In this document: positions 1-20,000 of the stretch, one piece after another
How the letters are laid out: every line of letters starts with the position of its first letter
Position numbering within the stretch: the first letter of the stretch is position 1
IMG/VR virus record: IMGVR_UViG_2061766007_000545
Length of the DNA: 20,000 nucleotides
Direction: 5' to 3' (one strand)
Source: an uncultured virus (IMG/VR IMGVR_UViG_2061766007_000545)
Lineage: Duplodnaviria; Heunggongvirae; Uroviricota; Caudoviricetes
The notes under the pieces: model-generated
The model's database searches: none
The model's input: the letters and a program-made list of their open reading frames with translations, nothing else
Told to the model about the DNA's origin: nothing
Program-made: the position numbers and the translations under genes

Positions 1-1
1 A

Positions 2-139
2 CAGGTTTTTGTAACAGATGGCGGTAAGCTTGAAGCTTTTTGGAAGGTATATGACGAAGCTGGCATAATGGGTGATGAGACAAGACTTGAGATTACCTTA
101 ACGTCTAGTTCTCCTATTACTCCAATAGAAGATTTTTGA
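2..139 (+). CDS. 3' end of a hypothetical protein (5'-truncated by window)
   Basis: Open frame QVFVTDGGKLEAFWKVYDEAGIMGDETRLEITLTSSSPITPIEDF ending TGA at 137-139. Confidence 0.7.
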   Translation, partial: QVFVTDGGKLEAFWKVYDEAGIMGDETRLEITLTSSSPITPIEDF

Positions 140-164
140 TTTTTCTTAAAATTTTTGATATAAT
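136..164 (+). promoter_or_regulatory. sigma70/sigmaA-type promoter driving first tRNA/ncRNA block
   Basis: TTGATT-17 nt-TATAAT with extended -10 TG; same architecture recurs five more times. Confidence 0.85.
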
Positions 165-204
165 ATATATAGAAAAGTTGAGAGAGAAATAAAAAAGTTT
201 ATAA

Positions 205-320
205 AAGTTATAGCCTCTGTGACAATTTAGGGTGCTTACGCTATAACTTCTTAAGCGCAAACCTCAAGTTATGCCTAATCTGCTGCTATCGCGCTATATA
301 AACTGAGCAGGAAAAGGCAA
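205..320 (+). ncRNA. candidate structured leader RNA with pseudoknot
   Basis: 10-bp stem AAGTTATAGC(205-214)/GCTATAACTT(240-249); loop GTGCTTA(232-238) can pair with TAAGCGC(252-258); second hairpin TGCCT..CTGCT/AGCAG..AGGCA. Confidence 0.4.
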
Positions 321-323
321 TTC

Positions 324-396
324 GGTTCTATAGTTTAGTTGGTTAAAATACGGCGCTGTCAACGCCGAGTCATGGGTTCAATCCCCATTGGAACCG
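324..396 (+). tRNA. tRNA-Asp(GTC)
   Basis: Acceptor GGTTCTA/TGGAACC, anticodon arm CGGCG-ctGTCaa-CGCCG, T loop TTCAATC, G73. Confidence 0.95.
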
Positions 397-623
397 CGCC
401 CATAGTGGATAGACGGGTTCAGAGATGCCTTAAGGTGTAACTCTATAAAAATACCTTTATTGCAAGGATAACTAGTGCCACCTAGGAAACCTTAGCCGGA
501 GTCAAAACAGGGTTTTTCTCCTTATTAATTCAAGGGCGTACGACGCTGAGAGTGAATTAAGTTAAAGGAGGTTTTCTGATGGCAGCGACTTACGACAACA
601 AAAACAGGCAGAGAAAACTTTTG

Positions 624-697
624 GGGGGTTTAGCTCAGTTGGTTAGAGCGCTTGACTGTTAATCAAGATGTCCTAGGTTCGAGTCCTAGAATCCCCG
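624..697 (+). tRNA. tRNA-Asn(GTT)
   Basis: Acceptor GGGGGTT/AATCCCC, CTTGA-ctGTTaa-TCAAG, TTCGAGT, G73. Confidence 0.96.
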
Positions 698-758
698 TTG
701 AACAAAAACCTCCTAAAGGTTTTTACTAGTAATGTGCTTGCACTACCCTAGGTTTTTT

Positions 759-953
759 GTGAAGGTTGGCGGAGTATGTAGGTGTACGCAGTATAAATTC
801 ATAGTAATTGGATTCTAAAAAGAATTGGGCGCCACGTGGGTGGCTCGGAGAAAGTTAGGACTTCTCTCAATCAACTCTACGGGACTATGATACCTCTCTA
901 TAATGAATACCCGAACCAAGAGGGAGTCGATTAACTCCAACTCTTGCCTTCAC
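759..953 (+). ncRNA. unnamed ~195-nt structured RNA
   Basis: Ends pair GTGAAGG/CCTTCAC; internal TCATAGT/ACTATGA domain with three hairpins; 3' hairpin CAAGAG-GGAGT/ACTCC-CTCTTG; no ORF. Confidence 0.5.
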
Positions 954-956
954 TAT

Positions 957-1028
957 GCACCCATCGTCGAATAGGCAAGACTACTGACTTGTAATCAGTG
1001 TATGGCGGTTCGAGTCCGTCTGGGTGCT
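957..1028 (+). tRNA. tRNA-Thr(TGT)
   Basis: Acceptor GCACCCA/TGGGTGC, ACTGA-ctTGTaa-TCAGT, TTCGAGT. Confidence 0.95.
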
Positions 1029-1035
1029 CTCCCAC

Positions 1036-1392
1036 CACTCGATACTAGTAGGAAAACCGAAGCTTTATTTCGAGTTAATGTGACTCTAGTGGAATCTTAG
1101 GAAAGTCGAGGAACTCGAGGGATATACCCTCCAAGAAGGGTTGAGCCTTCAGCACAGGGGTTTAAGGTCGAAGTGACAATAGTCATATGGTAAGAACCAG
1201 GCATGTAAATGTGCGTTAGTGCGAAAAACCTTAAAGAACCTAACACGCCTCTCAACGATGCGGACCACGTTAGGTCTGGGAATACTGAAAAACGAGAGCA
1301 GTGAGCACACACAGGAATCTCACGCCGTACTAGTCTCCGGTACACGACTATGAGGTGGTAATAGTCCCTCGTCACGATGTGTAGGTATTCCC
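1036..1392 (+). ncRNA. unnamed multibranch structured RNA(s) between tRNA-Thr and tRNA-Glu
   Basis: Nested stems GTTGAG(1140)/CTCAAC(1251), TTTAAGGT(1161)/ACCTTAAA(1228), GGGAATAC(1278)/GTATTCCC(1385) each enclosing short hairpins; GC-richer than coding DNA; no credible ORF. Confidence 0.5.
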
Positions 1393-1399
1393 GTAATTT

Positions 1400-1472
1400 G
1401 TCGCCTTCGTCTAATTGGCTAGGACAGCGCCCTTTCACGGCGCAAACGTGGGTTCAAACCCCATAGGCGGTA
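1400..1472 (+). tRNA. tRNA-Glu(TTC)
   Basis: Acceptor GTCGCCT/AGGCGGT (two G-U), GCGCC-ctTTCac-GGCGC, TTCAAAC. Confidence 0.93.
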
Positions 1473-1475
1473 TAT

Positions 1476-1830
1476 TGGGTAGAAAGATAAACTACCCCTC
1501 CCTTCCGAGGGAAAAGGTCCCTGACATCTTTAAGAGTCGACACTTGAAAGGTGCATACCAAACTTCTTATAATGGGCAAGCGATAGTCCCATATCGTTAA
1601 CGCTTCTAACACGGAAGTAAAAATAGGTAGTTGCTCGTAAGGCAAGCTTCGACAGAAAGGCTGACATGAGGACTCCGCGGATGTCGTGCCGCGGTATAGA
1701 AATGGTTGGACAGTTCTACTAGGGATGACAACTAAAGTAGCAGTATGGAGCATTCTATGTAATGCGGTTGAAATGCTGAAGTAGTTTGCGGTGGTTTTGG
1801 GGCGACATTTATCCACTTGTCAAAAAGAAA
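1476..1830 (+). ncRNA. unnamed ~350-nt structured RNA between tRNA-Glu and tRNA-Pro
   Basis: Nested GTCCCT(1517)/AGGGAT(1721), GAGTC(1534)/GACTC(1671), hairpins GGGTAG/CTACCC, ATGGG/CCCAT, CCGCGG/CCGCGG, TAGAA/TTCTA, AGCATT/AATGCT; boundaries approximate. Confidence 0.45.
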
Positions 1831-1842
1831 GAGCGTTCATCA

Positions 1843-1916
1843 CGAGGGATACGTCAATTGGCTAGACGGCGTGCGTTGGATGCACGAGGTTGCGGGTTCG
1901 AATCCTGCTCCTTCGA
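1843..1916 (+). tRNA. tRNA-Pro(TGG)
   Basis: Acceptor CGAGGGA/TCCTTCG, CGTGC-gtTGGat-GCACG, TTCGAAT, A73. Confidence 0.93.
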
Positions 1917-1925
1917 CTCGAAAAT

Positions 1926-1954
1926 TTGAAAATTTTCGGAATTTTTGGTATACT
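1926..1954 (+). promoter_or_regulatory. sigma70/sigmaA-type promoter
   Basis: TTGAAA-17 nt-TATACT with extended -10 TG. Confidence 0.8.
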
Positions 1955-1978
1955 ATATTTACAAAAGTTAAGAAATAT

Positions 1979-2049
1979 CGCGCTGTGATGTAATGGAAGC
2001 ATACTAGCCTCATACACTAGAAATACGGGTTCAAGTCCCGTTGGCGCAA
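1979..2049 (+). tRNA. tRNA-Met(CAT), initiator-like acceptor stem
   Basis: Acceptor CGCGCTG/TGGCGCA with C1xA72 mismatch, CTAGC-ctCATac-ACTAG, TTCAAGT. Confidence 0.85.
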
Positions 2050-2096
2050 GTCCATTATCTATAGGTGGCGCTGAATACATAAGAAAGGAAAAAGAA

Positions 2097-2453
2097 ATGG
2101 GATATTATACTGATTATTCACTTAAGGTTTATAATGAGAAAGGTCAGTTAATCGATTCAGAAGATAAGGAATTCGAAGAAGTACGTAGAGTCTTTTCTGA
2201 AAAGGTTGAATGGATAGATTCTGATGACCTTAATGCTCTTAATACTGAACACGGAGTTAATTGGAAGTGGTATTCTGCGCGAAGAGATATTGAAGAAATC
2301 GCAAAAGAACTTCCTTCTTATTACTTTATTCTCGAAGGACAGGGAGAAGAGAATGGAGATTGGTGGACTCTTGCTCTTCATGGAACACAAATTTATGAAG
2401 ACGAAGTAGTTGCACCCGCAAATCATTTTGATGATTTTTGGGTTGCTTATTAA
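2097..2453 (+). CDS. acidic phage hypothetical protein embedded in tRNA array
   Basis: 118-aa ORF with RBS AAAGGA; starts MGYYTDYSL, contains WKWY and LEGQGEENGDWW. Confidence 0.88.
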   Translation: MGYYTDYSLKVYNEKGQLIDSEDKEFEEVRRVFSEKVEWIDSDDLNALNTEHGVNWKWYSARRDIEEIAKELPSYYFILEGQGEENGDWWTLALHGTQIYEDEVVAPANHFDDFWVAY

Positions 2454-2530
2454 GTCCTCGTACGCCAATAGGAACCAGACGGCTTGACTACGAATCAACG
2501 CAGATGTGGGTTCGAATCCCTCCGAGGACA
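2454..2530 (+). tRNA. tRNA-Arg(ACG)
   Basis: Acceptor GTCCTCG/CGAGGAC, TTGA-ctACGaa-TCAA, TTCGAAT; single mismatches in D, anticodon and T stems. Confidence 0.88.
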
Positions 2531-2533
2531 TAT

Positions 2534-2619
2534 GCCGCAGTACCTTAGTGGGGAGGAGGGACGGTCTTGAAAACCGTTGACCTTCACGGGTCTGTTAGGT
2601 TCGAATCCTACCTGCGGCG
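2534..2619 (+). tRNA. tRNA-Ser(TGA)
   Basis: Acceptor GCCGCAG/CTGCGGC, ACGGT-ctTGAaa-ACCGT, long variable arm GACC/GGTC, G73. Confidence 0.93.
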
Positions 2620-2623
2620 CTCT

Positions 2624-2712
2624 GTTTGGGTGGCAGAGTCTGGTCGAATGCGGTGGATTGCTAATCCATTGAACATTAAATTGTTCCGAAGGTTCGAATC
2701 CTTTCCCAAACG
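2624..2712 (+). tRNA. tRNA-Ser(GCT)
   Basis: Acceptor GTTTGGG/CCCAAAC, GTGGA-ttGCTaa-TCCAT, long variable arm GAACA/TGTTC, G73. Confidence 0.93.
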
Positions 2713-2784
2713 TTTAAACTAATTTAAAGGAGAACTATGATGAAGCGAAAACATATTCACAAATTAAAATCGAAGAAAATTTAC

Positions 2785-2856
2785 GCGTCCGTGGCAGACA
2801 AGTAATGCACACGACTTTTAATCGTGGATATGTGGGGGCAGTACCCATCGGGCGCA
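2785..2856 (+). tRNA. tRNA-Lys(TTT) with non-canonical D and T loops
   Basis: Acceptor GCGTCCG/CGGGCGC, CACGA-ctTTTaa-TCGTG, T stem GTGGG/CCCAT but loop GGCAGTA. Confidence 0.85.
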
Positions 2857-2860
2857 CTAT

Positions 2861-2934
2861 ACCGATGTAGTTTAACTGGCAAAATAGCTGACTCTTAATC
2901 AGTAAGACTGTGGGTTCAACTCCCACCATCGGTA
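2861..2934 (+). tRNA. tRNA-Lys(CTT)
   Basis: Acceptor ACCGATG/CATCGGT, GCTGA-ctCTTaa-TCAGT, TTCAACT. Confidence 0.94.
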
Positions 2935-2936
2935 CT

Positions 2937-3008
2937 GTGGGAGTGGCAGATAGGTAATGCGCTAGATTGTGGCTCTAGTTTATGCGGGTTCAAATCCCGT
3001 CTCTCACC
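2937..3008 (+). tRNA. tRNA-His(GTG)
   Basis: Acceptor GTGGGAG/CTCTCAC, CTAGA-ttGTGgc-TCTAG, TTCAAAT, C73. Confidence 0.94.
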
Positions 3009-3011
3009 TAT

Positions 3012-3086
3012 ACGAGCATAACTCAGTAGGTAGAGTGTCCGTCTGATACGCGGGAAGTCGGTTGGGTTCAAATCCCCCTGCTCGTA
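3012..3086 (+). tRNA. tRNA-Ile(GAT)
   Basis: Acceptor ACGAGCA/TGCTCGT, TCCGT-ctGATac-GCGGG, TTCAAAT; T stem has 2-nt bulge. Confidence 0.88.
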
Positions 3087-3098
3087 CTTACCGAAAAT

Positions 3099-3127
3099 TT
3101 GATTTTTTCTTAAATTTTTGGTATAAT
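3099..3127 (+). promoter_or_regulatory. sigma70/sigmaA-type promoter upstream of the large ncRNA
   Basis: TTGATT-17 nt-TATAAT with extended -10 TG. Confidence 0.87.
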
Positions 3128-3157
3128 ATATGTATAGAAAATAAGAAAAGAACTTTG

Positions 3158-3752
3158 AAAACTTTATAAAAAGCGTGTTGCAACCTTGTGAAGAGCGTCT
3201 AACCAACGCTGCAAGGGCGCCTCGGAACAGCTGAGGAGTCGTCAGAAGGATACTTCAAAACGGCTCAACTTTCACAGAAATCGAAAGACGAAGTGAGAAG
3301 GAGTAAAACTCCAACAGAGAAGAGGTGGCGCAAGGGCAATATGATTATAAGACACGATTCCGGTTTTCCCAACAATAGACGCCTCGGTGAGGAATAACCC
3401 TATAGACCACATCCGCAAGATGTGAGCCAATGTAGGGAATGCAAAAGCAATGGGAATGCCTCGACACTACGTCAGAAATGGCGTAGAACCGGTTTGCGGT
3501 ACGAGTAGCCTAAGAGGCGTAATATTTCTAAAATAGTTGACATTAATTATTGGGCAAATGTTATTAATCTGAATGGTTGGTGAAAGTTAGGGGTACATGA
3601 ATCCCCTTCGAGACAGTGGTTCCGAAAGGAACTGGGGTAAGAAGTTATACGGCGACGGCTGTATGGCTCAGACTTATCTCCTCGGTGGTCGAATAATAAA
3701 GGTTATTGAGGGAGTATAGCGAAGGCTAGCAATATACTTTTTATAAAGTTTT
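3158..3752 (+). ncRNA. large ornate ncRNA, ROOL-like (GOLLD as alternative)
   Basis: Perfect 16-bp terminal stem AAAACTTTATAAAAAG/CTTTTTATAAAGTTTT enclosing ~560 nt of ORF-free hairpins, several with GNRA loops; own promoter; inside phage tRNA array. Family assignment is from size and context only. Confidence 0.65.
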
Positions 3753-3819
3753 TAAAGAAAAGAAAAGGAGTTAAGTTATGATGAGACGATGGTGTATGGA
3801 GCAGCACATTAAGTAATAT

Positions 3820-3890
3820 GCGGCTCTAGTGTAATGGTAACATGGCGGTCTCCAAAACCGCAGATTAGGGTTCAACTCCCTAGAGTCGTG
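3820..3890 (+). tRNA. tRNA-Trp(CCA)
   Basis: Acceptor GCGGCTC/GAGTCGT, GCGGT-ctCCAaa-ACCGC, TTCAACT, G73. Confidence 0.94.
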
Positions 3891-3894
3891 CTTC

Positions 3895-3968
3895 GGCATT
3901 GTACTCAAGTGGATTAAGAGGCGGGGCTGCAACCTCCGTAGTCGTTGGTTCGAATCCAACCAATGCCT
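3895..3968 (+). tRNA. tRNA-Cys(GCA)
   Basis: Acceptor GGCATTG/CAATGCC, CGGGG-ctGCAac-CTCCG, TTCGAAT, U73. Confidence 0.95.
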
Positions 3969-3982
3969 CTTTAATAATATAT

Positions 3983-4055
3983 GCCCCGATAGTCGAACGG
4001 CATAGACGCTTGTCTTAGGAACAAGTATTTGGGGGTTCAAATCCCTCTCGGGGTA
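3983..4055 (+). tRNA. tRNA-Leu(TAG) with short variable loop
   Basis: Acceptor GCCCCGA/TCGGGGT, CTTGT-ctTAGga-ACAAG, 5-nt variable loop TATTT, TTCAAAT, A73. Confidence 0.9.
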
Positions 4056-4180
4056 CGCCGCGGTAACAAAGGTATATACCTAGGGGTAAAGAGAATAGAG
4101 ATAGTATGGGACGCTCGAGGGACTAACCTCGTTCTGCGCTTTGCCAGAGAATTTAAAGTGCGCAACCCATGCCCCGGCGT
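4056..4180 (+). ncRNA. unnamed ~125-nt structured RNA
   Basis: CGCCG/CGGCG end pairing; GTATGGG(4104)/CCCATGC(4166) closing CGAGG/CCTCG and GCGCTTT/AAAGTGC hairpins. Confidence 0.5.
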
Positions 4181-4222
4181 TTTTGTAGTGGCGCTCGAAG
4201 TAATACACTACGATAGAAGGTT

Positions 4223-4289
4223 AGTCTTATGGTCTAATTGGACAAGGACGCGCAAAAGCGAGGTAGGGGTTCGATTCCCTTTAAGACAA
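4223..4289 (+). ncRNA. tRNA-like RNA with anticodon arm reduced to a 3-bp tetraloop hairpin
   Basis: GTCTTA/TAAGAC acceptor, D arm GTC..TGG..GAC, CGC-AAAA-GCG, T arm AGGGG-TTCGATT-CCCTT. Confidence 0.8.
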
Positions 4290-4315
4290 TTTATTTTATT
4301 TTGGAGGAAAAGAAA

Positions 4316-4651
4316 ATGCCGTTTTCATTTACTACTACAAATTTACTAGATGATATCTTTCTTTCTGCTGATTGTAGACTTGTTGTTCGATCTCAATCTC
4401 GTGTTGAACGATTTAAAAATCTTGTAAAGGTTGTGTTTAAGAATAAGGATAAAAGAATTTTTGGAGTAAAGCTTTCTAATGGCGAAGTAATTACTGTTAA
4501 GTGTGCCGAGAATGATACTTGGGATGAAGAGAAGGCATTGCTTGCATGCTTCGCAAAGTGGGAAGCCGGTAATAATGGTACATTCAATAAGCTCTTTAGC
4601 TTACTTGATAATGTAGTAGATACTTCGAAAGGACAAAAGAAAAATGACTAA
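4316..4651 (+). CDS. phage hypothetical protein
   Basis: RBS GGAGG then ATG 4316 (true start; track start 4238 lies in the tRNA-like gene); VKCAENDTWDEEKALLACFAK segment. Confidence 0.85.
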   Translation: MPFSFTTTNLLDDIFLSADCRLVVRSQSRVERFKNLVKVVFKNKDKRIFGVKLSNGEVITVKCAENDTWDEEKALLACFAKWEAGNNGTFNKLFSLLDNVVDTSKGQKKND

Positions 4652-4778
4652 TAAAGATAAATATAATCTGATGTTCGCGCGCTATGTAACTTTGAGCGAA
4701 AAGCCGAAAAACATTAAGTCAGGTGGAGTACTACGGAAGCTGCGCCGTAAGCTGCGCGCAATGAAAAAAGACAATTAA
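4644..4778 (+). CDS. small basic protein (44 aa)
   Basis: MTNKDKYNLMFARYVTLSEKPKNIKSGGVLRKLRRKLRAMKKDN; overlaps stop of upstream gene; followed by terminator. Confidence 0.7.
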   Translation: MTNKDKYNLMFARYVTLSEKPKNIKSGGVLRKLRRKLRAMKKDN

Positions 4779-4811
4779 CTAATTTTTGTTTCCTGTTTTT
4801 CTTTTCTTATC

Positions 4812-4845
4812 GGGGTTACTCGATAGAGTAACCCCACCTCTTTTT
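4812..4845 (+). terminator. intrinsic terminator
   Basis: GGGGTTACTC-GATA-GAGTAACCCC hairpin followed by pyrimidine/T run. Confidence 0.7.
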
Positions 4846-4863
4846 CTTAGAAAGGATTCGCTT

Positions 4864-5073
4864 ATGTATAAAATGACAAAAGTAAACTCAAGTGCGATTG
4901 CAGAAATTGGTTATGATAAAGATACGGGTACTTTGAAAATTACTTTTAATAGTGGTTTAGAGTATGAATATCCAAACTTTGAAGAAGCGCAATATAAAGA
5001 ATTTCTTCATGCGCCTTCAATAGGAAAATATTATAATAAGAATATACGCTCAAGCTTCTCAATAAAAAGATAG
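4864..5073 (+). CDS. KTSC domain protein
   Basis: Typical KTSC pattern VNSSAIAEIGYD..TLKITFNSG..YEY..FLHAPSIGKYYNKNIR; RBS AAAGGA before ATG 4864. Confidence 0.92.
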   Translation: MYKMTKVNSSAIAEIGYDKDTGTLKITFNSGLEYEYPNFEEAQYKEFLHAPSIGKYYNKNIRSSFSIKR

Positions 5074-5083
5074 AACAAATAAT

Positions 5084-5118
5084 AAAAACTCCCACTTATA
5101 AATGTAGGGAGTTTTTTT
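5084..5118 (+). terminator. intrinsic terminator
   Basis: AAAAACTCCC...GGGAGTTTTTTT hairpin with T tail. Confidence 0.75.
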
Positions 5119-5138
5119 AATATGGAGGATTATAAAGA

Positions 5139-5765
5139 ATGGCGAAGAATGACTTGACCATTAGAATTCCAAATTTGGCAAAGGAAACAATGCCACTTCC
5201 CGATCCAGAGCTACTTCAGTTTTATAGGGAATATGAAAATAGAATTATTTGGCTTATAGATGAGATTGGAGATGAAGTCTATAGTGTGATGCAAATGATT
5301 CTACAATTTAATAGAGAAGATGAGGAGATTGCCCCTGAAGATAGAAAACCTATCCGATTAATTATCGCTTCACCCGGCGGTACGCTTGATTGCGCGCGCT
5401 CATTGGTTTCTATTATGAGACTTTCAATAACCCCAATTTATACAATTGCTGTTGGAAGCGTAGCTAGCGCAGCTTCTATGATTTATCTCGCAAGTAATCG
5501 TAAATTTGCAATCCAAGGTGCGTCCTTCCTTTTCCATCAAGGGAGTTGCGATAATGTAAGCGGTAGCTATGCAGAAGTTACTGCTTTTGCAGATAATTAT
5601 AAGAAAATTATTTCTGATATGACAGAATTTTATAAAACACATACAAAGTTTCCAAGTGAAGTTATTGAAGAAAAAATTCAAAAAGATTGGTATATTGGTC
5701 TTGATGAAGCACTTGAAAATGGAGTAGTAGATGAAATTATAGAAGATATTAGTATACTTCTGTAA
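5139..5765 (+). CDS. clpP: ClpP-family serine protease
   Basis: PIRLIIASPGG, catalytic Ser in VASAASMI, His in FLFHQ, Asp in KDWY, C-terminal EALENGVVDEI. Confidence 0.93.
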   Translation: MAKNDLTIRIPNLAKETMPLPDPELLQFYREYENRIIWLIDEIGDEVYSVMQMILQFNREDEEIAPEDRKPIRLIIASPGGTLDCARSLVSIMRLSITPIYTIAVGSVASAASMIYLASNRKFAIQGASFLFHQGSCDNVSGSYAEVTAFADNYKKIISDMTEFYKTHTKFPSEVIEEKIQKDWYIGLDEALENGVVDEIIEDISILL

Positions 5766-5777
5766 TGAAGGAGGAAT

Positions 5778-6614
5778 ATGAACGAACTCAATTATACGGG
5801 TTACATTGAAGCAGACTTGAATGATGAAAGTCTTGCTGAACTCATAGAAAAGGGAACGTCTAAAATACTTAGTACAACTACGGAGAATCAGTACGTAATC
5901 GCGCACGATGAACATGGAAAAGAAGTTTATTTTAAGTGTAAAAATGGGAAATATGAATTAGTTAAATATCCTTTTATAAATTCGATACTTACTGGTCAGT
6001 TGAAGCCGAGAAACCCTCAGCAGTATTGCGCGATGGATATGTTACTTGATGAAAGTATTCCGGTTAAATTGATTACGGGTAAGTTTGGTAGTGGTAAGAC
6101 ATTGGCTTGTATTGACTTTGCAATACAGGCAATTGAAGCAGGAAAATTTGAGAAGATTGTATTTGTAAGGAATAATGTACAGGTGGCTAACACAGATAGT
6201 TTGGGTGCGCTTCCCGGTGACGAGTTGGAGAAGACGCTGCCTTATGTGATGCCTTTTGCTGACCACTGCGGTGGAAAGGATGGGTTGATGCGCTTGATTC
6301 ATGATGAAAAGTTGGAAGTTATTCCACTTGCTTTTCTGCGCGGGCGCAGTATACGTAATGCCATCATTTACTCTATGGAGTCGGAGAACCTTACAAAGGA
6401 GCAGATTCAGTTAATTATGGGGCGCGTAGACGAGGGTTCTATCTTGGTTATGGACGGTGATATAAAGCAGAGAGATAAAGCTGCTTTTGAGAAGTCGATG
6501 GGACTTGAGAGAATGGTGAGCGCGCTTAAGGGGAATAAATTATTTGGATATATTCATTTAGTAAAATCAGAAAGAAGTGAGGTTAGCGCGCTTGCGGATT
6601 TACTTGATGAATAA
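5778..6614 (+). CDS. phoH: PhoH-like ATPase
   Basis: PRNPQQ, Walker A GKFGSGKT, LGALPGD, FLRGRSI, GDIKQRD, SERS motifs. Confidence 0.93.
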   Translation: MNELNYTGYIEADLNDESLAELIEKGTSKILSTTTENQYVIAHDEHGKEVYFKCKNGKYELVKYPFINSILTGQLKPRNPQQYCAMDMLLDESIPVKLITGKFGSGKTLACIDFAIQAIEAGKFEKIVFVRNNVQVANTDSLGALPGDELEKTLPYVMPFADHCGGKDGLMRLIHDEKLEVIPLAFLRGRSIRNAIIYSMESENLTKEQIQLIMGRVDEGSILVMDGDIKQRDKAAFEKSMGLERMVSALKGNKLFGYIHLVKSERSEVSALADLLDE

Positions 6615-6623
6615 GGAGACGCA

Positions 6624-8699
6624 ATGGGAAGAAAAGGGATTGGACATATTACGAGTTTTACCGGCGCCGGCGATTTTGCTGACGTCGGTTCAAGTGCGTC
6701 TTTTGTTAAGAATAGTTATATTGTATATCCTCAAGGATTAAATGGACAAAACCCTAACTTAGCTGCTGTTGCGCAAGCTACATTTGTTAAAAATACTATG
6801 TCATATATGTCTGGTAATAAATTAACTGGACTTGACTATTTGTTTTATTTCTTAGAGGACTTGGCACAGAAAGAACGTAAAAAGGAAATAGAGTTTTTTA
6901 GAAAACAACGAGATGTTCTTAAAGCCGATAAAAATAAGTTCTTTAAAGAAACTAACACCTTGCGTGCTATTAATACTATTATTGACCACTTGACCGGTTA
7001 TGGAACTAAAGGGCCGGCAGACGAAACTCTTTCTTCTGCGTTTACTTTATTACTTAATCCACTTGGTTATGATGAAATTAAGAGACAACTTAATAGCATA
7101 CATAATAGTGGTGGCGCGCAACATATGAGTGATTTATATGATGCACTTTGTAGAGATGTATTTAATGAAACTTATGAGAAGTATAAAGACGAGTTTGAAA
7201 AAGAACTCGTTGTTAATGCTAAAAGTGCAAAATTTGAAGATATAGCCGATCCCAAAAAAGTAAATAATTTGGCTAAGAATTTTATAAATAAATTTGTGCA
7301 AGGCGCGCAAAAGAAGTTGCGAAAAGAATTAAATATTCAGGATGACTACCGTAAAGAACTTTTTGATAAATTAAAGGATGCCATGAGAATTAATGGTATC
7401 GTTACTTTTAGTGAAAGAAGTAATGGAACAGTTTGGAATAATGAAAAATGGGACGCTCTTCGTAATGAATACAAACATAAGAGTAAAGAAATGGAAAAAG
7501 ATTCTGAACAAAAGAAACTTGCGGCTCATTTGGTTAATTCTTATGTAAGTAAAACGACTAATAAAAGACAAGAAGCAAAAAGTATTAGGACTATTCTAGA
7601 CCAAATTGTTCAGAATATAATGGGCGATTATTTGTGGCGAGTTGCCGAAGATATGCCTGCCGCGAATAAAGATAAAATAACAAACTATCAAGTTTCAGTT
7701 CATACTGGAGATAAAAATATAGGTCGTCAATCCCTTTTGGATAAAGCCAGTAGTACTAAGGATAATATTGTAACCCATCCGGGCACGGCAACTACCGATA
7801 GTTTTAGTATATTTAGTTTTACTCCTATTGTCCTTGATGGAGAAGGGATAGCTAAGTATTATGAGGGAATTTTAAAAGGTGATGAAAAAGCACTTGAAAA
7901 TTACTTAAAAGAATTCCATAAAGAATTAGAGACTGACGAGGCGCGCCATGAAGTTCTAAAGAATCTTTTTGTTGTTCATTTTAACACAAAAGGTTATAAG
8001 TCTCAGAATAACTTAGCGGCTGTTAATAATAGAAATTTAGATAGTTTAATGGGTACTTTTAAAGATATATCCCAAGCTTTTTATGACATTAGTGGTACTT
8101 CTAAGGGTAGAGCCGTTTATCGTAATGAACATTTGGGATTAATGTTTGACGATCTTATCTTTATGCTTAATAATACAGTAAAAGGTGCTGCCTTTGAAGA
8201 TAATCGTAAAATGGTAGAGTCTCTTATAAGTTATAATTGCTGTACTTGGATGTGGGATGGCTTAACTACCGATATTAAGAATATAGATAAAGAATTAAAT
8301 GGTGTAAGAAATATTCATGTTTTCCAAAGTGGAGGCGCATACTTTACTATTTCTGATCTTCTGATGGAGATAGTAAAACTCTTTAGAGGTTATTTTCTTG
8401 GCTCTGACCTTGAGTCTTTTGTTCAAACCACTTTAAAGCCTGCTTCTTTTAATGCTGAAGAAGAGTACAAAAGATTAACAAGTTATTATCCTATTGATAC
8501 TAAGAAGTTTAAAAAGACCGATAATGGTAAGATGAAGAGAGAGAAACTTAGCTATGAAGAGAAGCAAGAGCAACTAAAAAAACGATGGATGGAAATGCGT
8601 AATTTAGGTCTTAATGGTACTACCTTATCTATCCATTTTCGTCAAAAAAAGATTGATGAATTACTTGGAAGATTATCTATGTTACGTAAGCTTCAATAA
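6624..8699 (+). CDS. large hypothetical protein (691 aa)
   Basis: Long ORF with RBS AAGGAG; no family recognised. Confidence 0.9.
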   Translation: MGRKGIGHITSFTGAGDFADVGSSASFVKNSYIVYPQGLNGQNPNLAAVAQATFVKNTMSYMSGNKLTGLDYLFYFLEDLAQKERKKEIEFFRKQRDVLKADKNKFFKETNTLRAINTIIDHLTGYGTKGPADETLSSAFTLLLNPLGYDEIKRQLNSIHNSGGAQHMSDLYDALCRDVFNETYEKYKDEFEKELVVNAKSAKFEDIADPKKVNNLAKNFINKFVQGAQKKLRKELNIQDDYRKELFDKLKDAMRINGIVTFSERSNGTVWNNEKWDALRNEYKHKSKEMEKDSEQKKLAAHLVNSYVSKTTNKRQEAKSIRTILDQIVQNIMGDYLWRVAEDMPAANKDKITNYQVSVHTGDKNIGRQSLLDKASSTKDNIVTHPGTATTDSFSIFSFTPIVLDGEGIAKYYEGILKGDEKALENYLKEFHKELETDEARHEVLKNLFVVHFNTKGYKSQNNLAAVNNRNLDSLMGTFKDISQAFYDISGTSKGRAVYRNEHLGLMFDDLIFMLNNTVKGAAFEDNRKMVESLISYNCCTWMWDGLTTDIKNIDKELNGVRNIHVFQSGGAYFTISDLLMEIVKLFRGYFLGSDLESFVQTTLKPASFNAEEEYKRLTSYYPIDTKKFKKTDNGKMKREKLSYEEKQEQLKKRWMEMRNLGLNGTTLSIHFRQKKIDELLGRLSMLRKLQ

Positions 8700-9712: not shown

Positions 9713-10189
9713 ATGGCTACTGTATATATGCTTATTGGAATTTCAGGATGTGGAAAGTCGACGATGGCACGCAAACTTAATGTCATGGGAGAAGGGAAAG
9801 TTGGTATTGTCTCTTCTGATGATATTAGAGAAGAGCTTTATGGTGATGCCTCGGTACAGAATAACCCTAAAAAAGTCTTTGAAATTGTGCATAAGCGGAT
9901 TAAAGGACTGCTTGACGAAGGATATGATGTAGTCTTTGATGCGACGAATCTTACAAAGAAGAATCGTAAGTCGTTTTTCTCTTTTTTAGATAAAGAAAAT
10001 TTGCGCGACAAGGTAGATGTTATTGGTTGTGTATGTAACGTTGATATTGAAACCTGCGTAAAGCGTCAGGCACTGCGCGCAAGAAAAGTACCAAAAGAAG
10101 TTATAGAGCGTCAGTCGTTGCAGTATGAAAAGCCTGAGATTAGCGAAGGGTTTTATGCGATTGCTGATTTTACAGAAAGGGAGAATTAA
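9713..10189 (+). CDS. polynucleotide kinase-like P-loop protein (AAA_33)
   Basis: Walker A GISGCGKS, SSDDIR, DATN, lid RQALRAR as in T4 Pnk-type kinase domains. Confidence 0.9.
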   Translation: MATVYMLIGISGCGKSTMARKLNVMGEGKVGIVSSDDIREELYGDASVQNNPKKVFEIVHKRIKGLLDEGYDVVFDATNLTKKNRKSFFSFLDKENLRDKVDVIGCVCNVDIETCVKRQALRARKVPKEVIERQSLQYEKPEISEGFYAIADFTEREN

Positions 10190-10190
10190 A

Positions 10191-10748
10191 ATGATATGGT
10201 TTAGTTCCGATCCGCATTTTTGTCACCAGAAAGACTTTCTTTGGGGACCTCGTGGATATGCGGATCAGTATGAAATGAATAGAGATATTATAAAGAATTG
10301 GAATGAACAAGTTCAGCCGAATGATGATGTATATCTTCTTGGAGATATAATGCTTAATGATAATGAGGAAGGACTTAAGTGTCTAAAAGCGCTGAAGGGA
10401 CGGATTCATATAGTACTTGGGAATCATGACTCTAAGGCAAGAGCAGAACTATATAGGTCTTGTCGTAATGTAGTGGAAGTAGAAAGAGCTATTCCACTTA
10501 AGGCAGAAGGATATACTTTTTATCTTACTCATTATCCAACTCTTACCGATAATTTTGATGAAGAGAATCATAAACCACTAGAAAATCGAGTAATAAATCT
10601 TTGTGGACATTCGCATACTAAGGATAAGTTTAAGGATATGAATAAAGGACTTATTTATCATGTAGAATTTGATGCTCACGATAATGCGCCTGTTGATATT
10701 AAGACGGTTATTTATGATATTAAAAAGTATATTGAAAGGAAAAGATAA
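10191..10748 (+). CDS. calcineurin-like metallophosphoesterase
   Basis: SDPH, LGD, GNHD, THYP, GHSH motifs; start MIWF at 10191. Confidence 0.92.
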   Translation: MIWFSSDPHFCHQKDFLWGPRGYADQYEMNRDIIKNWNEQVQPNDDVYLLGDIMLNDNEEGLKCLKALKGRIHIVLGNHDSKARAELYRSCRNVVEVERAIPLKAEGYTFYLTHYPTLTDNFDEENHKPLENRVINLCGHSHTKDKFKDMNKGLIYHVEFDAHDNAPVDIKTVIYDIKKYIERKR

Positions 10749-10750
10749 AA

Positions 10751-10933
10751 ATGATTGTATATATTTGTTTAATTGTATTTGGATTAACCAATATCTTTTT
10801 ACTTTTAAATTTGGTGCAGATTGATAAGATTTATGATAAGAGAACCTCTTTTATGCAGAAAGAAATTAGAGAACTAAAGCGTAAAATTGAGAATCCAACT
10901 TATGGTGGCGAAGAGGTAGAGGACGAAAAGTAA
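10751..10933 (+). CDS. small single-pass membrane protein with coiled coil
   Basis: RBS AAAGGA, N-terminal hydrophobic stretch. Confidence 0.75.
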   Translation: MIVYICLIVFGLTNIFLLLNLVQIDKIYDKRTSFMQKEIRELKRKIENPTYGGEEVEDEK

Positions 10934-10950
10934 CTCTATCGAGGAGGTCT

Positions 10951-11175
10951 ATGGAAGAGATATTAGTCTCTTTAATTGCCTTTTGTCTTACAATAAGCGG
11001 TAATCTTCTTATAAATAATAAGAAAAAGTTTGGCTTTATTATATGGACATTAGGTGATATTGTATGGATTTGCGTAGAGTTTATGTTCGGAGTTAATTGG
11101 TTCCGATTTATGATGTTTTTTACTTATATTTTGGTAAATATTGATGGATATAGGAAATGGTTAAAAGTAGAGTAA
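10951..11175 (+). CDS. small 3-TM membrane protein (PnuC-like half)
   Basis: RBS GGAGG; three hydrophobic helices, GFIIW..GD..W and G..KW motifs. Confidence 0.65.
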   Translation: MEEILVSLIAFCLTISGNLLINNKKKFGFIIWTLGDIVWICVEFMFGVNWFRFMMFFTYILVNIDGYRKWLKVE

Positions 11176-11200
11176 GCCGGAACAGGTTTACTCTATTTTT
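11168..11200 (+). terminator. intrinsic terminator
   Basis: TAGAGTAAGCC/GGTTTACTCTA hairpin plus TTTTT. Confidence 0.75.
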
Positions 11201-11227
11201 GACTTTTTAAGAAATTTTTGGTATAAT
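11199..11227 (+). promoter_or_regulatory. sigma70/sigmaA-type promoter
   Basis: TTGACT-17 nt-TATAAT with extended -10 TG. Confidence 0.88.
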
Positions 11228-11258
11228 ATTTTTAGAAAATAGGAAAAGAGGATTTTTT

Positions 11259-11453
11259 ATGAAATATTTGGTTGAATTTTGCGAGAAAACTTATTATAGT
11301 ACAATAGTTGAGGCTGATTCATTTGAAGAAGCAAGCGAAACCCTGAAAAAGCAGTGGTATAAAAATCCTGAAGATGTTGTTATTGATGAGTATGGCGCAA
11401 ATTTTATTGATATAGAAGATATTTTTGAATATCCACCAGAGGAAGAAGAATAA
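11259..11453 (+). CDS. small acidic protein, DpnD/PcfM-like
   Basis: MKYLVEFCE...IVEADSFEEA pattern. Confidence 0.7.
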   Translation: MKYLVEFCEKTYYSTIVEADSFEEASETLKKQWYKNPEDVVIDEYGANFIDIEDIFEYPPEEEE

Positions 11454-11502
11454 GAATATTAAAGATAATTAAATTAGTAAAAATTAAAAGGAGAATATTT
11501 TT

Positions 11503-11796
11503 ATGAAAGACGATGCTAAAACTATTTTAGGTGCTATTGTAGGACTAGGACTTATGATTGGTTTTTTAATTCTTTTTGTTTCTTGTGTAGAGCACGTACA
11601 GGAAGATAGTTTTAAAGAAGATATTTCACATTACTCCATAATTAGTGTGAATGGTGAGGAATATAAAACAGAAGATATTGAGAGTGTTAAAGTTGATTGT
11701 TATACACATAGAAATGATGTTTATACTGTTTACTTAAAAGATGGTACAAAGATTACCTTTATGGAAGGTGGATACACATTAAAGGAAAAGAAATAG
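11503..11796 (+). CDS. membrane-anchored hypothetical protein
   Basis: RBS AAGGAG, N-terminal TM helix ending VSC. Confidence 0.8.
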   Translation: MKDDAKTILGAIVGLGLMIGFLILFVSCVEHVQEDSFKEDISHYSIISVNGEEYKTEDIESVKVDCYTHRNDVYTVYLKDGTKITFMEGGYTLKEKK

Positions 11797-11805
11797 GAGA
11801 ACAAA

Positions 11806-12636
11806 ATGTTTAAGAAAATTTTTCTAACCGGTGACTATCACGCAGAAGTGCAATCTTTTGAGCGGTTTAGAGAGTTTGAGTTTCCTAAATATAATCTCGA
11901 GCCGAAGGATGTTGCGATTATTCAGCTTGGAGACTTTGGAATGAATATGGTTAAGGGTTGTGGACATCCTGTGGTAGAGGCATATTTTGAGAAGGAGAAG
12001 CAAAAGCTCGAAGATAGTGGATTTACTTTCTTCGTAATTCGCGGCAATCATGACCAGCGTCCATCTAACTTGTTTAATAGCGAAGAGTGGCGCTTTGAGA
12101 CTATGTTTGATGGTCCGACCTATGTGGAGAAGAAGTATCCTCATATCCACTATGCGATGGATTATCCATGGGTATACAACATTAATGAATATAAGACACT
12201 CGTACTCCCCGGCGCACATAGTGTAGATAAAGCTCGTCGTTTATATGAAGAGCATATTGGTGGTATTAAGACTTGGTTTGAGGATGAGGCTATGACCAAT
12301 TCTGAGATGGATTATGCACTAAGTCTTGTACGCCAAAATAATGCAACCTTTGACCTTATCCTTAGCCATACTTGCCCTTGGTCTTTTATTCCTCGTTTCT
12401 CCATTAATCAGGGGCCGCACCTTAGCGTAGATATGGAAAGATTGTTTGAGCAGATTCTTCGTGAAGTTGAGGAAAATGGAAAGTATGGTGGATGGGTATG
12501 GGCGCATCATCATACTAACGCTCTTTATGAGAAGCCAGATGGAGGGTACAATATGGTTCTTTATGAACTACACGTACCATTGGATGATTATATTGAGAAT
12601 AAAGGACGGGTTGAGAATTTTGTTATTCTCTACTAA
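11806..12636 (+). CDS. calcineurin-like metallophosphoesterase (second family)
   Basis: TGDYH, LGDFG, RGNHD, GAHSVDK, SHTCP, AHHH motifs. Confidence 0.92.
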   Translation: MFKKIFLTGDYHAEVQSFERFREFEFPKYNLEPKDVAIIQLGDFGMNMVKGCGHPVVEAYFEKEKQKLEDSGFTFFVIRGNHDQRPSNLFNSEEWRFETMFDGPTYVEKKYPHIHYAMDYPWVYNINEYKTLVLPGAHSVDKARRLYEEHIGGIKTWFEDEAMTNSEMDYALSLVRQNNATFDLILSHTCPWSFIPRFSINQGPHLSVDMERLFEQILREVEENGKYGGWVWAHHHTNALYEKPDGGYNMVLYELHVPLDDYIENKGRVENFVILY

Positions 12637-18437: not shown

Positions 18438-18589
18438 AGGGCAACCCACAGAAGAAGGTCTTTCAAGATAATTTCATAAAGCATTGGGTTAAATCCTCTC
18501 ACAATCATCCTGAAGGCTGGCGATGGTGGAAGCGCAAGAATCGTAAAGACGCGAGAAGAAAACTAAAAGCGGAGGAAAACGAAGAATGA
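18434..18589 (+). CDS. small basic Trp-rich protein (copy 2)
   Basis: MKGNPQKKVFQDNFIKHWVKSSHNHPEGWRWWKRKNRKDARRKLKAEENEE. Confidence 0.75.
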   Translation: MKGNPQKKVFQDNFIKHWVKSSHNHPEGWRWWKRKNRKDARRKLKAEENEE

Positions 18590-18872
18590 CTAATTTTGAA
18601 TATATTGTGAATAATAATACAGAAGCAAGAGAATTAATATTGGATACTTTCTGTAAAGCCTTCAACGACTGTTTAGGATGTCCTTGTTATGATAATAAAG
18701 GTAATTGTAACATGGATAAAGAAACAGTAATTAATTGGTTTTTAGGTGAATATGATCCTTTTGGCTATATTCTAAATAAATTAAAGAAAGGATACCCTCA
18801 GGTTGAGCGGAAAATTCAAGAATTTAAAAAGGCTTTTATTGATTGCTCTTATTTTACCCATAACACAGAACC
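18586..18872 (+). CDS. Cys-containing hypothetical protein, truncated by gap
   Basis: MTNFEYIVNN..CLGCPC..INWF open into the N run. Confidence 0.72.
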
Positions 18873-19664
18873 NNNNNNNNNNNNNNNNNNNNNNNNNNNN
18901 NNNNNNNNNNNNNNNNNNNNNNNNNNNNNNNNNNNNNNNNNNNNNNNNNNNNNNNNNNNNNNNNNNNNNNNNNNNNNNNNNNNNNNNNNNNNNNNNNNNN
19001 NNNNNNNNNNNNNNNNNNNNNNNNNNNNNNNNNNNNNNNNNNNNNNNNNNNNNNNNNNNNNNNNNNNNNNNNNNNNNNNNNNNNNNNNNNNNNNNNNNNN
19101 NNNNNNNNNNNNNNNNNNNNNNNNNNNNNNNNNNNNNNNNNNNNNNNNNNNNNNNNNNNNNNNNNNNNNNNNNNNNNNNNNNNNNNNNNNNNNNNNNNNN
19201 NNNNNNNNNNNNNNNNNNNNNNNNNNNNNNNNNNNNNNNNNNNNNNNNNNNNNNNNNNNNNNNNNNNNNNNNNNNNNNNNNNNNNNNNNNNNNNNNNNNN
19301 NNNNNNNNNNNNNNNNNNNNNNNNNNNNNNNNNNNNNNNNNNNNNNNNNNNNNNNNNNNNNNNNNNNNNNNNNNNNNNNNNNNNNNNNNNNNNNNNNNNN
19401 NNNNNNNNNNNNNNNNNNNNNNNNNNNNNNNNNNNNNNNNNNNNNNNNNNNNNNNNNNNNNNNNNNNNNNNNNNNNNNNNNNNNNNNNNNNNNNNNNNNN
19501 NNNNNNNNNNNNNNNNNNNNNNNNNNNNNNNNNNNNNNNNNNNNNNNNNNNNNNNNNNNNNNNNNNNNNNNNNNNNNNNNNNNNNNNNNNNNNNNNNNNN
19601 NNNNNNNNNNNNNNNNNNNNNNNNNNNNNNNNNNNNNNNNNNNNNNNNNNNNNNNNNNNNNNNN
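18873..19664. other. assembly gap (N run)
   Basis: Continuous N bases. Confidence 0.99.
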
Positions 19665-19665
19665 G

Positions 19666-20000
19666 GTTGGACGCTGGCTTGCAAAGAGAGAGTGGGGACG
19701 AAAGTTAATTACTTTCTTCCTTTACTCGAAGAAAAAGCAGACCGGTACTGATTGGCCCGTAGGTAGATTCCCTGGTGTCAGCAAGACCGATCAGGAGAGA
19801 TGTGAGAATATGACTTGGGTTCTTAATGATAAGACTCCATTTATTCGTACTCAGAAGTGCGACGGTTCTTCGGGTACTTTTATCCTTGAGCGGAAGAAGC
19901 GCGGTAAGTACGAGTTTTATGTGTGCTCGCGCAATGTAAGAATGCTTAAGCCTGAGCAGACTTGCTTCTATGGGGATAAGAATTACTACTGGGATGCCGC
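19666..20000 (+). CDS. ATP-dependent RNA ligase (Rnl2/DRB0094-like), internal fragment
   Basis: Open frame ..FPGVSKTDQERCEN..TQKCDGSSGTF..FYVCSRN..: nucleotidyltransferase motif I KxDG, motif Ia SRN and the upstream KTDxER segment. Confidence 0.88.

Follow-up and report, generated by a model that had tools for sequence, protein, structure and literature searches.

A probable cage-forming ROOL RNA gene in the tRNA array of an uncultured bovine gut phage

The ROOL locus and its surroundings

We analysed a 20,000-nucleotide stretch of DNA from an uncultured virus of the Caudoviricetes (IMG/VR IMGVR_UViG_2061766007_000545), referred to below as the window. Positions 324–4289 hold 17 Rfam tRNA matches on the same strand (15 of the 17 are also called by ARAGORN), and a ROOL RNA lies between tRNA-Ile and tRNA-Trp of this 17-tRNA array. 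Phage-like genes follow downstream. They encode PhoH, a head maturation protease of the Clp type, an ATPase resembling polynucleotide kinase (AAA_33), two metallophosphoesterases and the product of an ORF that matches an RNA-ligase PHROG weakly. The kinase-like ATPase and the metallophosphoesterases stand a few kb from ROOL, and the RNA-ligase-like ORF about 15 kb from it. The features of the locus are as follows.

3012..3087, + strand: tRNA-Ile (GAU), upstream neighbour (Rfam and ARAGORN)
3099..3127, + strand: putative sigma-70-type promoter (-35 TTGATT at 3099–3104, 17-nt spacer, -10 TATAAT at 3122–3127)
3153..3181, + strand: closing helix P1, 5' arm of 29 nt with 86% complementarity to 3729–3757
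3160..3747, + strand: ROOL RNA, the RF03087 match (3153–3757 with the extended closing helix)
3184..3216, + strand: P2 stem-loop (helices 2 and 3, 100% paired among six close relatives)
3199–3205, + strand: loop L2, CUAACCA, with CCA at 3203–3205 as one side of the candidate L2–L13' inter-subunit contact
3245..3256, + strand: conserved GGAUAC hairpin, GAAG-GAUA-CUUC (Rfam alignment)
3372..3381, + strand: ACAAUAGACG junction, an exact match to the upper-case Rfam consensus, in invariant or near-invariant columns among 55 ROOLs
3382..3392, + strand: short hairpin CCUC-GGU-GAGG (Rfam structure mapping)
3408..3424, + strand: hairpin CACAUC-CGCAA-GAUGUG (L11), with CACAT/ATGTG at 3408–3412/3420–3424
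3467..3486, + strand: 8-bp hairpin CTACGTCA-GAAA-TGGCGTAG, tetraloop at 3475–3478
3514..3567, + strand: variable A+U-rich linker (L13), with a spacing equal to the family median
3568..3576, + strand: UCUGAAUGG, with the putative pseudoknot arm UCUGA at 3568–3572 and the candidate contact arm UGG at 3574–3576
3590..3607, + strand: hairpin GGGG-UACAUGAAUC-CCCU with the conserved GUA..AAUCC loop (helix 21, 100% paired in six relatives)
3620..3631, + strand: hairpin UUCC-GAAA-GGAA, in the minimum free energy (MFE) fold
3644–3653/3658–3667, + strand: 10-bp hairpin GTTATACGGC/GCTGTATGGC, apical CGACGG at 3653–3658
3668..3672, + strand: UCAGA, the second putative pseudoknot arm, complementary to 3568–3572
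3717..3728, + strand: hairpin UAGC-GAAG-GCUA, adjoining the P1 3' arm (Rfam alignment)
3729..3757, + strand: 3' arm of P1, an imperfect extension of a 16-bp stem
3820..3891, + strand: tRNA-Trp (CCA), downstream neighbour (Rfam and ARAGORN)

Searches for counterparts of the locus gave no match by blastn of 3100–3800 against cultured phage records, and PhoH is at most 38% identical to cultured phage proteins. The 691-aa ORF at 6624–8699 had no match on the contigs carrying the five nearest ROOLs, in phage records (tblastn) or in viral contigs. Among the nearest ROOL contigs, PhoH was found only in G002, at 38% identity and about 100 kb from its ROOL, and no protein gene co-occurring with the ROOL subfamily of the window was found in the contigs of the nearest relatives. 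Since the genes around ROOL show no synteny with those of its nearest ROOL relatives, gene context says little on function. For the family as a whole, ROOL and GOLLD are described as sharing a tRNA and prophage context, and ROOL as occurring also outside prophages (PMC5737381).

The initial annotation of this DNA had placed a promoter about 30 nt upstream of the RNA, and a promoter-like site is present there, ending 31 nt before 3158. It matches the consensus at 10 of 12 positions and carries an extended -10 TG at 3119–3120 (TGgTATAAT). Promoter-like sites number five in 2400–4700, against 4.6 ± 2.1 in shuffled sequences, which is not above chance; the 3099–3127 site is the joint-best hexamer match of the five and the sole one with the TG. 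The relative L188 has a site at the same place (TTGACT, 17 nt, TGcTATAAT) set within a tRNA-to-ROOL spacer that otherwise differs, and this conservation strengthens the promoter assignment. Of the five close relatives, L188 has diverged most and alone shares the promoter; in the other four (L158, L136, L166 and L178), a tRNA ends 5–8 nt before the closing helix and leaves no room for one.

From these tRNA-abutting and promoter-bearing relatives, we take it that ROOL is either self-promoted or co-transcribed with tRNAs; co-transcription has been suggested as the reason for the proximity of ROOL and tRNAs (Weinberg et al. 2017, PMC5737381). Transcription of the window copy would proceed from its own sigma-70-type promoter at 3099–3127, with a probable start near 3134–3137. 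No terminator-like site was found between ROOL and tRNA-Trp, and therefore read-through into the downstream tRNAs is probable; the 3' end of the RNA would then be set by tRNA processing together with the 29-bp closing helix.

The ROOL of the window is present in RNA libraries. A single bovine gut sample, perhaps the one from which the stretch came, has it in full in four metagenome runs, and sampled-word shares were 0.20–0.57 in four metatranscriptome runs of two studies. RNA-library contigs were compared over 2400–6000, leaving aside the runs X16–X20 with their small word shares, and the fitting contigs all lie within 3200–3714: a 468-nt contig (3247–3714, 1 difference, depth 78.7) in the X5 RNA assembly, two contigs of 164 nt (3200–3363) and 151 nt (3564–3714) with 0 differences in X7, and two in X12, one of 160 nt with 3 differences and one of 189 nt with 2. 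Near-identical RNA-library contigs reach depths of 75–79. What these contigs show is presence, not transcript ends, strand or abundance, and DNA can occur in RNA libraries; X21, a DNA run of an RNA-library sample, gave short pieces only. No RNA contig was found over 3973–6000, and this uncovered part is not evidence of silence. Several ROOL variants were found together in one rumen RNA sample.

Family assignment and the conserved fold

Through an Infernal search with the Rfam models, a check suggested in the initial annotation, the ROOL model RF03087 was found to match 3160–3747 (+) over 588 nt with 292.4 bits (E 1.3e-66), about three times the gathering score of 99.1, and the match covers the whole model (1–574 of 574). 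GOLLD was absent both among the 18 gathering-level Rfam matches of the whole window and among the 23 Rfam matches at E ≤ 0.1 for positions 1–5200. These searches likewise gave no ribozyme family beside ROOL. The RNA had been termed ROOL/GOLLD-like; the ROOL half of this name holds and the GOLLD half falls away. A new RNA class is rejected on account of the full-length RF03087 match. The length of 588 nt compares with a median of 595 (range 547–677) in a set of 55 ROOL sequences, and with a published family mean of 581 nt (PMC5737381). Conservation among 49 distant ROOLs is 90% or more in 77 alignment columns; the window agrees with the majority base in 69 of these and departs from it in 8. Judged by these comparisons, 3160–3747 (+) reads as an ordinary, well-preserved member of the known ROOL family, with the ACAAUAGACG junction among the most conserved stretches of ROOL.

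The features from which the RNA had been recognised proved to be present as described. The closing stem is a perfect 16-bp one (3158–3173 is the reverse complement of 3737–3752) and is paired in the MFE fold; all hairpins that had been named are found at their positions; the arms TCTGA (3568–3572) and TCAGA (3668–3672), proposed as a long-range pairing, are perfectly complementary; and every ORF wholly inside the RNA is shorter than 60 aa, the longest being 52, 40 and 40 aa. A 96-aa minus-strand ORF with a TTG start (2916–3206) overlaps the first 49 bases and runs antisense through tRNA-His and tRNA-Ile; it had no PHROG family match.

The MFE of the RNA was −195.9 kcal mol−1, against −151.7 ± 6.3 kcal mol−1 for 100 shuffles (z = −7.06), none of which was as good. 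Two 369-nt tRNA-free gaps of the same array gave fold z values of +0.44 and −0.10; because these gaps fold no better than shuffles, base composition is not behind the fold signal. We found no repeats and no fold signal in the two gaps, and no PHROG family match for their minus-strand ORFs. When the Rfam consensus structure was laid on the window, 121 of its 159 pairs were canonical, 31 non-canonical and 7 gapped, so that 31 of the 152 scorable pairs are non-canonical under the Infernal alignment. This alignment shifts three helices by one base (3644–3653/3658–3667, for example, is a clean 10-bp hairpin), and from reading the sequence we attribute several of the non-canonical pairs to such one-base slips.

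We collected relatives through two motif-pair scans of viral contigs, which gave 82 and 111 stretches (193 loci); nhmmer with the window ROOL as query matched 166 of the 193. A loose motif, ACAATAGACGN{8,18}AAYAA, had given 115 stretches on viral contigs, only one of which (L099) was ROOL-like by nhmmer; it was rejected as too loose and replaced by two longer patterns. The loci formed 82 clusters, 69 of them with full flanks, and 60 representatives were sent to Rfam. A full-length ROOL was found in 54 of the 60 (19/20, 18/20 and 17/20), the six loci with none being L141, L133, L147, L154, L175 and L184. The viral ROOLs scored 216–406 bits (n = 54), and tRNAs adjoin nearly all of them.

The main alignment (MAFFT) comprised the window and the 54 viral ROOLs. 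RNAalifold, with no structure supplied, predicted 89 pairs from these 55 sequences, and 87 of the pairs show compensatory change at least once. Its prediction includes the closing helix, P2, the GGAUAC hairpin and the long 3' hairpin. In the GGAUAC hairpin, alignment columns 135–141 and 146–152 pair with compensatory changes, and in the 3717–3728 hairpin (columns 932–935/945–948) 10 to 34 sequences per pair are changed on both sides.

A second test used the window and its five close relatives (L158, L136, L166, L178 and L188). Among these six sequences, 79.2% of cells were paired, against 40–50% with slid partners, and 54 of 162 pairs were changed on both sides, against 7–17 when slid; 0 of 500 shuffles reached the observed score. 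Compensatory changes occur in nearly every helix, including P1 (29 pairs, 6 of them with changes on both sides, and 94.2% of cells paired) and the 10-bp hairpin, helix 26 (88.7% paired, with 5 such two-sided changes). The structure used in this six-sequence test was partly fitted to the register of the window, which favours the window, and the RNAalifold result is free of that bias. The initial annotation had allowed for a lack of covariation among homologs; what we found among ROOLs is heavy compensatory change. Judged by family match and covariation, the window RNA adopts the conserved ROOL fold.

Predicted cage contacts

ROOL RNAs have been seen by cryo-EM to form closed, hollow, protein-free cages (PMC12286853). 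The same source describes the env-120 ROOL as a D4 octamer about 280 Å across, with the variable linker disordered inside, and as stable down to nanomolar concentration (PMC12286853). A review gives tetramers and octamers for the Enterococcus faecalis ROOL, and hexamers for the Ligilactobacillus salivarius ROOL, owing to its ultrashort P10 (PMC12990946); ROOLs from three sources formed hexamers or octamers in vitro (PMC12286853, PMC12990946). The contacts listed in the review are L2–L13' and J11/9–L11' (3 bp each), J9/10–L10' (2 bp), L12–P3' through the minor groove, L14–P7'' through A stacking, and a 4-bp L15–L15'' kissing loop (PMC12990946); an intramolecular L13–P15 pseudoknot is named in a CASP16 paper (PMC12412911). 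We equated loops of the window with these named bridges solely by position and by passages of text.

The L2–L13' pair at alignment columns 51/704 is U-A in 25, C-G in 16 and A-U in 8 of the 55 ROOLs, and C-G in the window. For loop L2 and the L13 flank, the match averages 3.82 within a sequence against 2.95 between sequences, and the window keeps it, with CCA at 3203–3205 and UGG at 3574–3576. This putative inter-subunit contact, which covaries family-wide, probably corresponds by its position to Kretsch bridge B1.

For the L11 loop and J11/9, the longest match averaged 4.20 within and 3.12 between sequences, and reached at least 4 in 44 of the 55 ROOLs. The window has only a 3-bp match here, GCA (3415–3417) with UGC (3440–3442), which is lacking in four of the five close relatives (L158, L166, L178 and L188), and J11/9–L11' showed no covariation in the subfamily of the window. 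From its position, the GCA/UGC match is likely to be the equivalent of Kretsch bridge B4 (J11/9–L11'), a bridge reported as highly conserved.

All 55 ROOLs have a GNRA word in the region of the L12 hairpin, and the GAAA hairpin at 3467–3486 would by position be L12, the minor-groove bridge to P3' of a neighbouring copy. The pseudoknot arms are near-invariant (TCTGA in 54 and TCAGA in 55 of the 55), so that they speak for presence only and covariation is uninformative. The apical loop of the 3' hairpin falls into the classes TCGC (23), CGAC (20), TAGC (9) and other (3) among the 55 sequences, the window having CGACGG. A CGACG loop could pair with itself through four Watson-Crick pairs around an A-A mismatch, and the apical loop of 3644–3667 is, by position, the probable L15 (Su-lab) or L18 (Kretsch), the half-shell kissing loop of bridge B6.

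By the same reasoning, the 3382–3392 hairpin appears to be P10 (Su-lab) or P7 (Kretsch numbering), a hairpin whose length reportedly influences the stoichiometry of the cage. The P10-like region measures 12 nt in the window (family range 11–28, median 14), and this short hairpin does not tell whether the window copy forms a hexamer or an octamer. The linker has no conservation in the 55-ROOL alignment; its spacing, AGTAGC to TCTGAA, is 64 nt, the median of 162 loci (range 37–97). In the ROOL of L202, a complete tRNA-Phe lies exactly within the interior linker.

By homology to the solved ROOLs, the window RNA would be expected to assemble by itself into a cage of six or eight copies. Copies would join via loop-loop and minor-groove contacts, namely the L2 CCA with the UGG next to the linker, the GCA/UGC match, the GAAA tetraloop and the self-pairing apical loop, and would close into a hollow, RNA-only cage with the variable linker inside.

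Function and comparison with known systems

The best overall explanation, to which we assign a probability of about 0.88, is that 3153–3757 (+) is a cage-forming ROOL gene in the tRNA array of an uncultured bovine gut phage. We commit to a self-assembling RNA cage that would be made during phage infection. The RNA had been described as having no known function; the literature that we found still assigns ROOL none, and its structure is now known to be that of homo-oligomeric RNA cages. Our guess, from context and weakened by the lacking synteny, is that the cage serves a phage tRNA supply-and-repair programme.

One step further, and improbable in our estimate, ROOL cages would be cargo or storage devices of the phage tRNA economy, in which the linker tethers RNA cargo and the cage, during infection, shields or withholds tRNA-related RNA or acts as a decoy for the host nucleases attacking that RNA. 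The place of ROOL among tRNA genes, with RNA-repair genes of the kinase, phosphoesterase and ligase types downstream of it, fits such a use. So does the tRNA-Phe in the linker of the L202 ROOL, which points inward and has a parallel in some GOLLDs. Among ROOLs, the interface loops occur in varied combinations (L2–L13' pair type by apical loop class), and this variation and the co-occurrence of variants would fit assembly 'addresses' that keep the cages of each phage homomeric.

It is unlikely that ROOL works as a ribonucleoprotein instead, binding or sequestering a host or phage protein such as a tRNA-targeting nuclease, with the cage as an in vitro or storage state. The polynucleotide-kinase-like ATPase and metallophosphoesterases a few kb downstream, and the RNA-ligase-like ORF about 15 kb downstream, would suit this role, and the review speculates on encapsulation of macromolecules (PMC12990946). 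However, these neighbouring genes are not common to the nearest ROOL relatives, and PMC12286853 reports that no ROOL protein partner has been identified.

We give little credence to a role in cis only, in which ROOL is a structured spacer or processing platform for RNase P/Z cleavage of the flanking tRNAs, with no role for a free particle. The position inside the tRNA array with no terminator after ROOL, the tRNAs whose ends, in four of the five close relatives, lie 5–8 nt upstream of the closing helix, and the co-transcription suggested for tRNA proximity (PMC5737381) are all consistent with it, but the inter-subunit contacts covary, which a cis spacer would not need; the solved ROOLs assemble at nanomolar concentration (PMC12286853); and ROOL is reported outside prophages as well (PMC5737381). 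A decaying relic with no working fold or particle is highly improbable, since the 31 of 152 non-canonical pairs under the Infernal alignment, the 8 departures at 77 highly conserved columns and the weak J11/9–L11' match stand against a full-length match whose 292 bits lie within the 216–406 of 54 viral ROOLs, compensatory changes in nearly every helix of the close relatives, the retention of the L2–L13' contact, pseudoknot arms and GNRA loop, and near-identical RNA-library contigs at depth 75–79.

The ROOL family is already catalogued and its cage structure solved, so this copy alone matters little. It is a documented natural variant for the question of what ROOL and GOLLD cages do, and its interface variants (the C-G L2–L13' pair, the CGACG loop and the short P10-like hairpin) could be used to probe what sets six- or eight-fold assembly and whether different ROOLs mix.

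The prohead RNA (pRNA) of phage phi29 is far smaller than ROOL. It resembles the window RNA as a phage-encoded RNA that forms a homo-oligomeric ring via intermolecular loop-loop pairing, but it makes four- or five-copy rings and no closed cage, and it has a known role in the DNA-packaging motor; we found no sequence or model relation between pRNA and the window. pRNA is named as a precedent in the ROOL literature (PMC12286853, PMC12990946). GOLLD (Weinberg et al. 2009) is likewise large and ornate, is found in phages or prophages close to tRNA arrays, and builds a cage of RNA alone whose interior loop is disordered, in its case a 14-mer (PMC12286853); and some GOLLDs carry an embedded, inward-pointing tRNA-Phe (PMC12990946), which resembles the related ROOL of L202. 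In contrast, its sequence and secondary structure are distinct, and no GOLLD match was found in the window at the gathering score or in 1–5200 at E ≤ 0.1.

The window RNA shares with ROOL (RF03087) the full-length model match, the size, the closing helix and the multi-junction fold with covariation, as well as the UCUGA/UCAGA arms of the putative pseudoknot, a variable linker of typical length, and the GNRA and candidate kissing-loop interface elements. The tRNA-array and phage context is also shared, and the cow rumen or gut is the habitat in which the family was first discovered. The window copy differs in having its own candidate promoter, whereas most close relatives have an abutting tRNA instead; in its L11 loop, CGCAA rather than the common (G)UGGCA type, giving a 3-bp contact; in its candidate apical kissing loop, of the CGACG class (20 of 55); and in its short P10-equivalent hairpin, from which hexamer and octamer are not distinguishable. 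These differences are variation within the family, and nothing of a different kind.

Variation among ROOLs and the interval to tRNA-Trp

Within one close ROOL subfamily, a comparison of the window with five close relatives revealed two arrangements 5' of ROOL. The window (3088-3152) and L188 (400-484) carry a spacer of ~70-86 nt upstream of ROOL with a conserved extended -10 promoter; in the other four relatives (L158, L136, L166 and L178), the upstream tRNA ends 5-8 nt from the ROOL closing helix.

We classified the loop that caps the long 3' hairpin (window 3653-3658) in the MAFFT alignment of the window ROOL and 54 viral ROOLs (A1, columns 836-874; n = 55). TCGC (23) and CGAC (20) were the most frequent classes, followed by TAGC (9) and other loops (3). 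From its position, we infer that this loop corresponds to the cage's self-pairing kissing loop. Loop class combined freely with the pair type of the L2-L13' inter-subunit contact in the same alignment (n = 55), and the classes could represent assembly-specificity variants of ROOL.

Several further ROOL variants were observed in the rumen RNA libraries X5 and X7 (contig depths ~20-206; compared at window 3360-3450). These contigs match the conserved core only and diverge beyond it, indicating that several different ROOLs co-occur as RNA in one sample.

Between ROOL and tRNA-Trp, reading by eye revealed an AAGGAG (3765-3770, + strand), followed after 7 nt by a 12-codon ORF (+ strand; ATG at 3778, TAA at 3814-3816); this combination (3765-3816) may be a chance occurrence.

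Other RNA elements in the tRNA array and near the L163 ROOL

Rfam matches in the window and in L163, a ROOL-motif locus from a viral contig.
1239-1275, + strand: abiF RNA motif (RF03085), sub-threshold (34.7 bits, gathering score 37; E 0.0014)
2785-2856, + strand: tRNA, no ARAGORN call (43.4 bits)
4223-4289, + strand: tRNA, no ARAGORN call (37.6 bits)
L163:1152-1232: tmRNA model, 81 nt (58.9 bits, gathering score 47; model positions 1-374)

The abiF match lies in the 369-nt gap from tRNA-Thr to tRNA-Glu, which showed no fold signal when evaluated as a whole. The tRNA match at 2785-2856 folds as a cloverleaf with the anticodon loop CUUUUAA, and would read Lys-UUU. The match at 4223-4289 has a good T arm and a stunted anticodon arm, the latter indicating that this element is tRNA-like and not a standard tRNA. 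The tmRNA-model match, beginning 52 nt 3' of the L163 ROOL, is probably also a tRNA-like element.

Protein genes downstream of the tRNA array

Genes of an RNA-repair type were found downstream of the tRNA array (9713-12636 and 18586-19998, + strand).
RNA-repair-type set, all + strand: AAA_33/polynucleotide-kinase-like ATPase; two calcineurin-like phosphoesterases; ORF with an RNA-ligase PHROG match (weak, E 4.2e-9; ORF open at its 3' end)
6624-8699, + strand: 691-aa ORF

Phage T4 mends cleaved tRNA by a kinase-phosphatase and ligase route, which the set recalls by analogy. The 691-aa ORF matched no Pfam or PHROG family, and had no relative among phage records, viral contigs or the contigs of five ROOL relatives.

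tRNA embedded in related ROOLs

A related viral locus, L202, holds a full-length ROOL with a tRNA inside it.
L202:420-1015: full-length related ROOL (326.5 bits)
L202:774-847: complete tRNA-Phe (GAA), found by Rfam (53.1 bits) and ARAGORN

This tRNA occupies exactly the variable linker of ROOL, the portion inside the cage. Only two of the 193 ROOL-motif loci (L202 and L284) carry a tRNA in the linker, and a literature search on this point found no report of a tRNA embedded in ROOL. For GOLLD, the review PMC12990946 describes one such RNA in which a tRNA-Phe is embedded.
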